From: Candidatus Omnitrophota bacterium
GTDB lineage: Bacteria > Omnitrophota > Gorgyraeia > Zapsychrales > Fredricksoniimonadaceae
DNA: 64,000 nucleotides
Assembly: GCA_963769315.1 (NCBI GenBank)
Contig: CAVYLG010000005.1
Location: 6,075-70,074, forward strand
Reading direction: 5' to 3'
The position numbers and the translations under genes were made by a program. Within the stretch, counting starts at the first letter, position 1. Every line of letters begins with the position of its first letter. The notes under the pieces were generated by a model. The model saw only the letters and a list, made by a program, of their open reading frames with translations. It was not told where the DNA came from and made no database searches. Shown here one piece after another: positions 42,183 through 43,316 of this stretch.

Positions 42183-42243
42183 CTCTCCCCCACCGCTTCC
42201 CTATACGTTGGGGGGTGTAATATTTGGATATTACGTAATTCTA
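42183..42243 (-). pseudogene. Second collapsed (start fused to end) copy of the 39581..40330 nuclease gene with its -10 box; ATG mutated to ATA
   Basis: The minus strand reads TAGAATTACGTAATATCCAAATATTACACCCCCCAACGTATAGGGAAGCGGTGGGGGAGAG. The fusion junction (..GTATAGGG..) is the same as at 18676..18732. Confidence 0.6.
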
Positions 42244-42346
42244 ACTTAGGTTTGCCGAGCAAGCAATAGGGAATATTTTTACGTCAAATGGCGGGAAAGA
42301 TAAATAGAATATTTGGAAGAGGGTTGTTCCTGGGATTGATAAGAGC

Positions 42347-42374
42347 TTGACAGGGTAAAGCTAAATGATATAAT
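42347..42374 (+). promoter_or_regulatory. Consensus sigma70 promoter TTGACA-N16-TGaTATAAT
   Basis: TTGACA at 42347-42352 and TATAAT at 42369-42374, preceded by TG at 42366-42367 (extended -10). Confidence 0.65.
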
Positions 42375-42380
42375 TTAATT

Positions 42381-42499
42381 GCATCACGATGAGAGGTCAA
42401 CCAAAAGGGTGAGTCCTGCGGCTATGCCTCTCGTTTGAAATCAATCACGATGAGAGGTCAACCAAAGGGGTGAGTCCCGTGGCTATGCCTCTCTTTTTT
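42381..42499 (+). ncRNA. Candidate ~120-nt small RNA made of two tandem 61-nt structured repeats, ending in a stem plus U-tract
   Basis: Unit 1 spans 42383-42443 and unit 2 spans 42444-42499. Each has an outer stem GAGAGG..CCUCUC enclosing two small hairpins. Unit 2 ends in cctctctttttt. No ORF. The 3' end lies 6 nt from the stop of the convergent NYN gene. Confidence 0.4.
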
Positions 42500-42505
42500 A
42501 TTACC

Positions 42506-42988
42506 TTAATACGCTAATTCCTCTCTTTGTTCATTCAAAAAAGTTATATCTGTTCCAAATTTCTTTAAAAGTGAAGAATATTTATTTTGGTTTGGAATCA
42601 GCAATCTTTCCAACTTACTTTTCATTTTTAAATATTCAATCAGGCAATAGAAATCCCCATCCCCTGTCACGATCACCGCTTTATGATAATTACCCCACTC
42701 GATCATAGCATGAAGCACTAGTTCTGCGTCAACATTACCCTTCACTTTGCCAGCTTTAAGATCAAGTGTTGGCTTGAACACCAAAATATAGCCTTGTTGT
42801 TGCAAGCTTGTGTATAGCGTTTGTTGTGTAGCAATATAACCAATAAATATAAACGCTTTAGTGACCTTATATTTATGCTTAAGATATATGCGAAAATGTT
42901 TGTAATCAAGCCGCCAACCTTGATCCCTGATGGACAGATTTAAATTTTGGCTATCGATAAAAGCATAATTGTTGACAAATTCCCCCAT
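42506..42988 (-). CDS. NYN/LabA-like (PIN-like) ribonuclease domain protein
   Basis: YAFIDSQNLN...GNVDAELVLHAMIE...AVIVTGDGDFYCLIEYL. The start is set at ATG 42986-42988, with AGGAG 7 nt upstream. Confidence 0.75.
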   Translation of the reverse strand: MGEFVNNYAFIDSQNLNLSIRDQGWRLDYKHFRIYLKHKYKVTKAFIFIGYIATQQTLYTSLQQQGYILVFKPTLDLKAGKVKGNVDAELVLHAMIEWGNYHKAVIVTGDGDFYCLIEYLKMKSKLERLLIPNQNKYSSLLKKFGTDITFLNEQREELAY

Positions 42989-43316
42989 GGAAACGCTCCT
43001 TGTGATGGTGCTTGAGCGCTGGGGGTGGCGCAGGTTTAAGATCAACTACTTTCAGTTTGGAGGTAACAGGCATACCGTGAAAGCTGGATATCTTCAATAA
43101 TTCGTTGAGTACCTGAACCTATGGAGACCATTTTGTCCACTTGGACGAAATGGCCTATGATTCTTTGTTAATAAAGGAAATTAATAATAAAAAGCGGCGA
43201 GGGATGTTGCGGTCAGTGTGCTTCTTTACTTATTTTCCATCTTTACGTTGTGAAGTCAAATAAAATGTGTAGTACAATATACCTTAAGATTCTTCGCTGC
43301 GCTCAGAATGACGGTT

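Follow-up and report, generated by a model that had tools for sequence, protein, structure and literature searches.

The window analysed in this study is a stretch of 64 kb (64,000 nucleotides) of DNA from a Candidatus Omnitrophota bacterium, and all positions without a locus name refer to it. In this window, a consensus promoter and two RNA units on the plus strand face a gene for a LabA-like NYN nuclease on the minus strand. The features of the locus are as follows:

42347-42352, plus strand: -35 hexamer TTGACA, found by promoter scan and conserved at homologous loci
42366-42374, plus strand: extended -10 element TGaTATAAT, found by promoter scan, with a 16-nt spacer after the -35 TTGACA
42381-42441, plus strand: RNA unit 1, from its fold and a covariance-model match (61.3 bits, E 1e-13)
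42383-42389, plus strand: 5' tail AUCACGA of unit 1
42391-42397 paired with 42426-42432, plus strand: basal helix of unit 1, from the fold
42401-42402 paired with 42420-42421, plus strand: 2-bp helix of unit 1, from the fold
42406-42408 paired with 42415-42417, plus strand: apical helix of unit 1, from the fold
42442-42502, plus strand: RNA unit 2, from its fold and a covariance-model match (78 bits, E 4e-18)
42444-42450, plus strand: 5' tail AUCACGA of unit 2
42452-42458 paired with 42487-42493, plus strand: basal helix of unit 2, from the fold
42462-42464 paired with 42480-42482, plus strand: middle helix of unit 2, from the fold
42467-42469 paired with 42476-42478, plus strand: apical helix of unit 2, from the fold
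42494-42499, plus strand: terminator U-tract of unit 2, which ends in CCUCUCUUUUUU
42506-42508, minus strand: stop codon of the NYN gene, 6 nt from the RNA U-tract
42506-42988, minus strand: NYN (LabA-like, PF01936) nuclease gene, 160 aa, start MGEF, from Pfam and the start of relatives

An earlier note, made from the letters of this DNA, had named the promoter as its best sigma70 match. Our scan of both strands of the 64-kb window agreed with this, and 42347-42374 was the sole 12/12 match to the sigma70 hexamers. From the spacing between the -10 element and AUCAC in relatives, the transcription start was placed at about 42381-42383. The two tandem 61-nt units described in the same note were recovered by Tandem Repeats Finder (61-nt period, 1.9 copies, 42383-42497), and a degenerate 42-mer of the unit had 2 matches against 0 expected. 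Its description of an outer stem enclosing two small hairpins had to be corrected, and each unit folds into one nested coaxial hairpin with a 7-bp basal, a 2-3-bp middle and a 3-bp apical helix. Unit 1 ends without a U-tract (CCUCUCGUUUGAAAUCA) and is followed by the linker GUUUGAAAUCA to unit 2. Thus, both units should be on one RNA of about 120 nt. We infer transcription of this small RNA from the conserved promoter and terminator; a look through RNA-seq and metatranscriptome runs yielded none that contains a locus tested here.

Inside the units, three positions differ, namely a42406/g42467, t42417/c42478 and c42419/t42480. The first two exchange the A-U pair 42406-42417 of unit 1 for the G-C pair 42467-42478 of unit 2, and the third leads to an extra A-U pair in unit 2. 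The number of substitutions and the swap from A-U to G-C had been given correctly before, but with coordinates 3 nt too high. In the wider family described below, the equivalent of pair 42406-42417 is G-C in 116 of 118 members, and A-U is found solely in unit 1 of this window.

The convergent gene had been taken for an NYN gene with its stop codon 6 nt from the U-tract of unit 2, and both the distance (42494-42499 to 42506-42508) and the domain were confirmed. Its product matches PF01936 (LabA/DUF88-like) with an E value of 8e-14 and 52.7 bits, against a gathering cut-off of 24.2. The reading frame is open upstream as far as a TTG at 43045; the start is most likely the MGEF at 42988, because the 160-aa relatives start there. 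The acidic residues D12, D87, D110 and D112, presumably the catalytic residues, as in NYN domains generally, are invariant among the 15 NYN relatives compared. An AF2 model of the protein (pLDDT 83) was searched with Foldseek, and it matched the NYN protein VPA0982 (2QIP; E 6e-8, TM 0.77) and also the NYN endoribonuclease domain of MARF1. According to this model, the predicted fold of the protein is that of an NYN (PIN-like) endoribonuclease.

Read-through of the NYN transcript is plausible, since only a poor U-tract, AUCGUGAUUC, comes after the hairpin on the NYN strand. The 5' leader of the NYN gene (42989-43100, minus strand; the same region in L001-L008) is alike in the closest relatives only. 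It includes two short hairpins (a CGGUUUCCCCAAACCG-like one and GCGCCACCCCCAGCGC) and then an AAGGAG ribosome-binding site. In addition, the CACCCC loop of this leader is complementary to GGGGUG of the window RNA, without covariation in the relatives.

Hundreds of uncultured bacteria, spread over many phyla, have the NYN-RNA pair as well. A pattern made from the conserved 5' half of the RNA (ACGATGAGNGNNNANCCAAAGGG) was searched in a species-representative genome collection, and at least 119 loci were found. Among the matches listed, 8 were chance matches inside genes, and the others were true RNA copies in MAGs of Omnitrophota, Planctomycetota, Chloroflexota/Dehalococcoidia, Elusimicrobiota, Nitrospirota, Patescibacteria, Armatimonadota, Actinomycetota and a few Proteobacteria. 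No match was found in the GenBank plasmid and phage collections, and the sole match of the pattern scan of IMG/VR arose by chance inside a coding sequence. The earlier note had also suggested an Rfam scan. It was run, and no Rfam 15 family matched the window at the gathering threshold or the stretch 42200-42600 at E <=10. The RNAs of L027, L064 and L198 likewise gave no Rfam 15 match at E <=1, including DUF3800-I to -XI, drum and skipping-rope.

A single unit of this RNA is about 55 nt long and is a terminator-ended hairpin, with the consensus (G)AAUCACGAUGAGAGGCUAUCCAAAGGGUUCCGUCCCGCGGUAAUGCCUCUCUUUUUU. At its 5' end, about 10 unpaired nt form a tail. Then come a basal helix, an internal loop and an apical helix capped by a loop of 6 nt, and the unit ends in a U-tract. 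Representatives of 14 sequence classes with unrelated helices (for instance GAGAGGC, GGUAGGU, GAAAAG, GGGGG and GGGAG) all have this one architecture (Z-scores from -1.7 to -5.3). The shortest of their apical stems have 3+2 bp around an internal loop, and the longest is a continuous 10-bp helix. The promoter of the family is conserved as TTGACA-17-TATAMT. TTGACA itself is present in 86 of 143 distinct upstream regions, and 129 of the 143 match the promoter at 9 or more of 12 positions. In most loci, the -10 hexamer ends 8-9 nt ahead of AUCAC; the tail thus lies at the 5' end of the RNA or within 1-3 nt of it. Furthermore, two positions have G-U pairs (in 42 and 31 sequences), which would become A-C mismatches if the opposite strand were the one transcribed. 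They fit the promoter strand only, which is therefore the functional strand.

Some copies depart from this form. In an Omnitrophica copy (L050:104-186), a palindrome of 16 nt (CCUGCCUGCAGGCAGG) is inserted into the apical loop, which lengthens the hairpin and leaves the remaining structure undisturbed. Meanwhile, two loci include pairs of RNA copies less than 1 kb apart (L006:3480-4507, 961 nt; L066:7057-7457, 334 nt), which suggests tandem or decayed duplicate NYN-RNA modules.

The linkage of RNA and NYN gene was counted from both sides. In all of eight NYN relatives examined (70-93% identity), the RNA lies straight after the NYN stop on the opposite strand, with a TTGACA/TATAMT promoter and a U-tract. 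A metagenome sample of 80 loci was chosen by protein (59-76% identity), and 76 of these have DNA beyond the stop. A covariance-model match was found 0-20 nt past the NYN stop in 72 of the 76, and the remaining four (L198, L210, L218 and L219) have a diverged RNA of equal fold, which was missed by the model and is obvious by inspection. The RNA is also present in both IMG/VR viral contigs that encode NYN. In total, it was found in 86 of 86 NYN-side loci (8 + 76 + 2), a sample of one subfamily at about 59% identity or more, and more distant NYN proteins may be without the RNA. It is convergent with NYN in 75 of the 76 metagenome loci, and 0-35 nt separate its U-tract from the NYN stop.

Two kinds of loci among these deserve a separate description. 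On the two IMG/VR contigs (L221 and L222, predicted to be viral, 21 and 35 kb long), the NYN-RNA pair is complete, and in one of them the basal helix is fully compensated (GGCUGGC/GCCAGCC). At L151 (1975-2100), the promoter-plus-RNA cassette is inverted about 20 nt past the stop, so it is co-directional with an intact NYN gene (67% identity); it is the one such case in 76. This locus is a natural test case of trans versus cis-antisense action.

On the RNA side, we counted 101 copies with at least 620 nt downstream among the matches listed. The NYN gene is intact beside 64 of them, frameshifted beside 4, left as fragments only beside 12, and absent beside 21; about 37% of these listed copies are without an intact NYN. 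The fragments beside the 12 copies are mostly the C-terminal end, still joined to the RNA. At NYN-less copies, the next gene is AbiEii, DUF3800, RadC, def, HigA, HicA or RelE. Orphan RNAs with consensus promoter and sequence were seen at L027 and L064 (next to DUF3800), L023 and L053 (AbiEii-like), and L059 and L106 (RadC). Meanwhile, no NYN without the RNA was seen among the 86 NYN-side loci with readable downstream DNA. By these counts, the linkage is strict one way only: the RNA outlasts the loss of NYN, and the opposite was never seen. A toxin and its antidote would be expected to show such an asymmetry. Furthermore, the variant classes of RNA and NYN diverge together.

The structure of the RNA was examined in two alignments. 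The first was a MAFFT alignment of 118 distinct copies, whose 5' half was fixed by the search pattern. In this alignment, 99.5% of cells can pair, compared with 51-70% when the partners are slid as a control, and 33 cells have double changes where shuffles give 6.7. Three pairs of the basal helix show exchanges among G-C, A-U and G-U. The second alignment was made of loci picked by the NYN protein alone and fitted to a covariance model from the first, so that it leans towards the structure; it has compensatory changes at 11 of 12 pairs, and none of 500 shuffles reaches the observed values. The covariation check on homologous loci that had been proposed earlier is therefore in favour of the structure.

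The most conserved element of the RNA is the tail A-U-C-A-C-(G/C)-A, which is 94-100% conserved among 66 distinct NYN-selected RNAs. At 60-70% amino-acid identity of NYN, the four-fold sites are 27% identical and thus saturated, but the RNA is 74% and the tail 97% identical. This points to strong selection on both the structure and the sequence of the RNA. As judged from these comparisons of homologous loci, the RNA family is shown to be real, structured and under strong purifying selection. Thus, the idea of a non-coding, structured and independently promoted small RNA linked to NYN has held up, as indicated by the conserved promoter, the covariation and the 86 of 86 NYN-side loci.

The tandem form is rare. 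Two-unit loci were found in 3 of about 180 loci examined (this window, L001 and L092), and the others have a single unit. The NYN of L001 is 93% identical to that of the window, and L092 comes from an Omnitrophota MAG with an NYN of 80% identity. All three loci have a promoter-less linker of 11-14 nt and have lost the U-tract of the first unit, which predicts a dimeric transcript. The unit cores are identical in L001, differ at 3 positions in the window, and are quite different in L092, in the apical hairpins. This divergence indicates that the two-unit state is old or recurrent in the lineage. The tandem is a derived, lineage-specific feature and not a hallmark of the family. Accordingly, what is conserved beside NYN homologues is the RNA unit (86 of 86 NYN-side loci) and not the two-unit repeat, which the earlier note had expected to be conserved there.

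The NYN-RNA pairs often have neighbours such as toxin-antitoxin and restriction-modification genes, SNF2 helicases, AbiEii, RadC and Bro-N. In this window, the neighbours include HigB/RelE-HTH and BrnT/BrnA-like pairs and a PD-(D/E)XK nuclease. Among the neighbourhoods compared, no conserved protein partner of the pair was found. The sequences upstream of NYN are alike solely among the closest relatives, and the gene upstream varies (the C-terminal part of an SNF2-type helicase, an N6-methyltransferase, RadC, Bro-N and others). The end of this upstream gene is often a few bases from the NYN start, and NYN is probably without its own promoter in many loci. The gene contents of these neighbourhoods show a mobile, defence-island context of the module. 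In about 10 loci (L164, L165, L180, L181, L195, L076, L077, L111, L051 and L056), a large SNF2-type helicase gene lies 1-9 nt ahead of NYN, and the helicase products end in ...GPREVILSEYLVSK. In these loci, NYN and a helicase of the restriction or defence type may share a transcript.

Several other explanations of the RNA were tried and rejected. A mini-ORF (AUG AGA GGU..., MRGQPKG*) stops at codons 4, 8, 12 or later. Its frame is shifted by 1-nt changes of loop length and by the 16-nt insertion of L050, and the AUG is absent from distant variants; the loop-length changes, the insertion and the in-frame stops at differing places exclude a conserved peptide. An integron attC site does not fit, for inspection by eye shows no R'/R'' core (GTTRRRY), and the conservation of the sequence is much too high. 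A hammerhead or other ribozyme, a k-turn and a T-loop were rejected, with no Rfam match and with the core motifs absent by eye. A 3' UTR element on the NYN strand is contradicted by the G-U pairs, the promoter and the U-tract, which all point to the plus strand. Finally, CCGCGGUAAU(G/A)C in many members (consensus about 35-47; window 42476-42488) equals the 530 loop of 16S rRNA over 10-12 nt, and the tail GAUCAC matches the beginning of the 16S 3' end. Since these positions are variable among family members, mimicry of either 16S element is probably a coincidence.

We propose that the RNA is the antidote of an NYN toxin in a mobile defence-island module, probably by binding of the protein rather than by antisense pairing, and we hold this reading with about even confidence. 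The module would consist of two genes, a LabA-like NYN (PIN-like) ribonuclease and a dedicated small RNA with strong constitutive transcription. In this RNA, the invariant AUCAC(G/C)A would lie in a free 5' tail of about 10 nt, and the extended hairpin behind the tail would double as the terminator of the RNA. It would bind NYN directly, and its 5' tail on a hairpin would resemble a flap-type substrate. A 5' single strand on a hairpin is the kind of junction recognised by PIN/FEN-like nucleases. NYN would be held inactive as long as the RNA is continuously made. When the supply of RNA stops, by loss of the module or by phage shut-off of host transcription, the nuclease would be released. This logic would be type III-like, with a different toxin fold and gene layout. 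In the lineage of this window, the RNA gene would have been duplicated in tandem and the first terminator disabled, giving a transcript of about 120 nt with two antidote units. To our knowledge, LabA-like NYN proteins are not established toxins.

The earlier note had called the RNA antitoxin-like. The pattern of losses fits this (NYN never without the RNA, the RNA often without NYN), but the tandem repeat cannot be the defining trait, since it is found in 3 of about 180 loci. For the antidote route, direct binding of NYN is more likely than antisense, because the unpaired bases of the tail and loop are near-invariant, no conserved complementarity was found between the tail and the NYN mRNA, orphan RNAs persist, and the cassette of L151, a single case, is inverted.

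A fuller version of the antidote reading can be given, which we regard as possible and consider tentative. Here, the RNA of about 55 nt, with its AUCAC(G/C)A flap on a hairpin, would occupy the NYN active site as a pseudo-substrate and would represent a new class of RNA antidote that is neither type I nor type III. The module would be a mini-cassette of about 600 bp without an NYN promoter of its own, spread via defence islands and some phages through at least 10 bacterial phyla, and in one Omnitrophota lineage a two-unit precursor would be processed to monomers.

An antidote that acts by protein binding alone would not need the near-universal convergent layout, in which the RNA abuts the stop; this layout fits cis-antisense action. 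In such a type I-like system, a terminator-less NYN transcript would read through the RNA gene, the RNA would pair with its 3' UTR from the tail and loop, and the duplex would be cleaved (for example by RNase III), so that the NYN mRNA would be destabilised. The geometry agrees with this (75 of 76 metagenome loci convergent, stop 0-35 nt from the U-tract), the NYN strand has no good terminator of its own (AUCGUGAUUC), and txpA/RatA, bsrG/SR4 and par of pAD1 have an equal geometry. However, cis-antisense pairing needs no conservation of sequence, yet the unpaired bases are near-invariant across phyla while synonymous sites are saturated. Furthermore, the pair is intact at L151 although the RNA cassette is inverted there, orphan RNAs stay intact beside unrelated genes, and the toxin would be a 160-aa enzyme and no small membrane peptide. 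Complementarity of the RNA to the NYN mRNA exists only if this mRNA reads through the RNA gene. None is conserved to the NYN 5' region or coding sequence among the loci compared, and trans-antisense to the 5' UTR or coding sequence was rejected, as the 7-mer match of the window is common only to the closest relative. The inversion of L151 and the strong conservation of unpaired bases seem to argue against antisense pairing as the main mechanism, and we consider this explanation unlikely.

More doubtful still is a ribonucleoprotein effector, in which the RNA would be an obligatory cofactor, activator or specificity element of NYN and not its inhibitor. An NYN that merely needs the RNA would also never be found without it, as in the 86 NYN-side loci; the co-divergence of the RNA and NYN variant classes is in line with a cofactor, and the invariant 5' tail could be a recognition or guide element. 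However, a cofactor should decay after loss of NYN, and the roughly 37% of RNA copies without an intact NYN among the matches listed keep the consensus promoter, tail and hairpin. In addition, an invariant 7-nt tail is no programmable guide. We therefore give this explanation a low probability.

Very improbable, finally, is an independent element linked to NYN by co-transfer, which could be a regulator of other genes in trans, a promoter-terminator unit that insulates its surroundings, or a site where island genes insert. Orphan copies beside AbiEii, DUF3800, RadC, def, HigA, HicA and RelE genes could be cited for it, and so could the terminator-ended motifs of unknown function that go with a single protein domain (Weinberg et al. 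2017, PMC5737381). However, the RNA lies directly at the NYN stop in all 86 NYN-side loci, the NYN remnants by orphan copies show secondary loss of NYN, and a plain terminator would not retain invariant unpaired bases.

If the RNA indeed checks the NYN nuclease, RNA-antitoxin systems would gain both a toxin fold and a gene layout that are new. The very large group of small LabA-like NYN proteins (more than 8,000 close relatives in one search) would also receive a first function. The pair is widespread in uncultured phyla (Omnitrophota, Planctomycetota, Chloroflexota, Elusimicrobiota, Nitrospirota and Patescibacteria), is easily synthesised and is directly testable in E. coli, and the invariant 5' tail and the covarying hairpin are clear mutational targets. 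A full-text search of the literature (open-access papers and bioRxiv) found no paper on an NYN nuclease with an RNA partner, and the pair looks like an undescribed module of a nuclease and an RNA antidote.

The module can be compared with several known systems. Weinberg et al. (2017, PMC5737381) described DUF3800-I to -XI, drum and skipping-rope as highly conserved structured RNAs with Rho-independent terminators, each tied to one nearby-encoded protein domain in either orientation, in many phyla and with unknown function. Our RNA is similarly terminator-ended and tied to one domain, and two orphan copies (L027 and L064) adjoin DUF3800 genes. However, it has no Rfam match to them, and its partner is NYN, which is absent from PMC5737381.

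Among the toxin-antitoxin systems, VapBC and other type II systems with PIN domains also have a PIN-like metal-dependent RNase toxin in a small addiction or defence module. Unlike in VapBC, the genes beside NYN include no conserved protein antitoxin, those upstream differ between loci, and the conserved partner is an RNA. The type I systems txpA/RatA and bsrG/SR4 of B. subtilis and par (Fst/RNA II) of E. faecalis resemble our module in that a small convergent RNA with a strong constitutive promoter ends at or over the 3' end of the toxin gene, and the terminator region is common to both genes. However, their toxin is a small hydrophobic peptide (less than about 60 aa), whereas the NYN protein is a soluble nuclease of 160 aa. 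In addition, our RNA overlaps the coding sequence by 0-3 nt at most, its sequence is conserved far past the need of antisense pairing, and one locus is inverted.

The type III systems (ToxIN, CptIN, TenpIN and AbiQ/antiQ) share more with the module: an endoribonuclease with a dedicated, structured and abundantly made RNA (the abundance here being predicted from the promoter), a small mobile module and a defence context. The window RNA is moreover a tandem repeat on one predicted precursor, and this makes its lineage the most reminiscent of type III antitoxin arrays. The earlier note had leaned on this likeness, which does not extend to membership. The fold is NYN/PIN-like instead of the Kid/MazF-like fold of ToxN/AbiQ. 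The RNA is single-copy in about 98% of loci, in contrast to a tandem array of short repeats, and it has its own consensus promoter and lies downstream and convergent, whereas type III RNA lies upstream in the same operon with a terminator before the toxin. By analogy, the NYN-RNA module would work most like a type III toxin-antitoxin system, yet its features place it outside types I, II and III, and there is a fair chance that it is a class of its own among nuclease modules with an RNA antidote.
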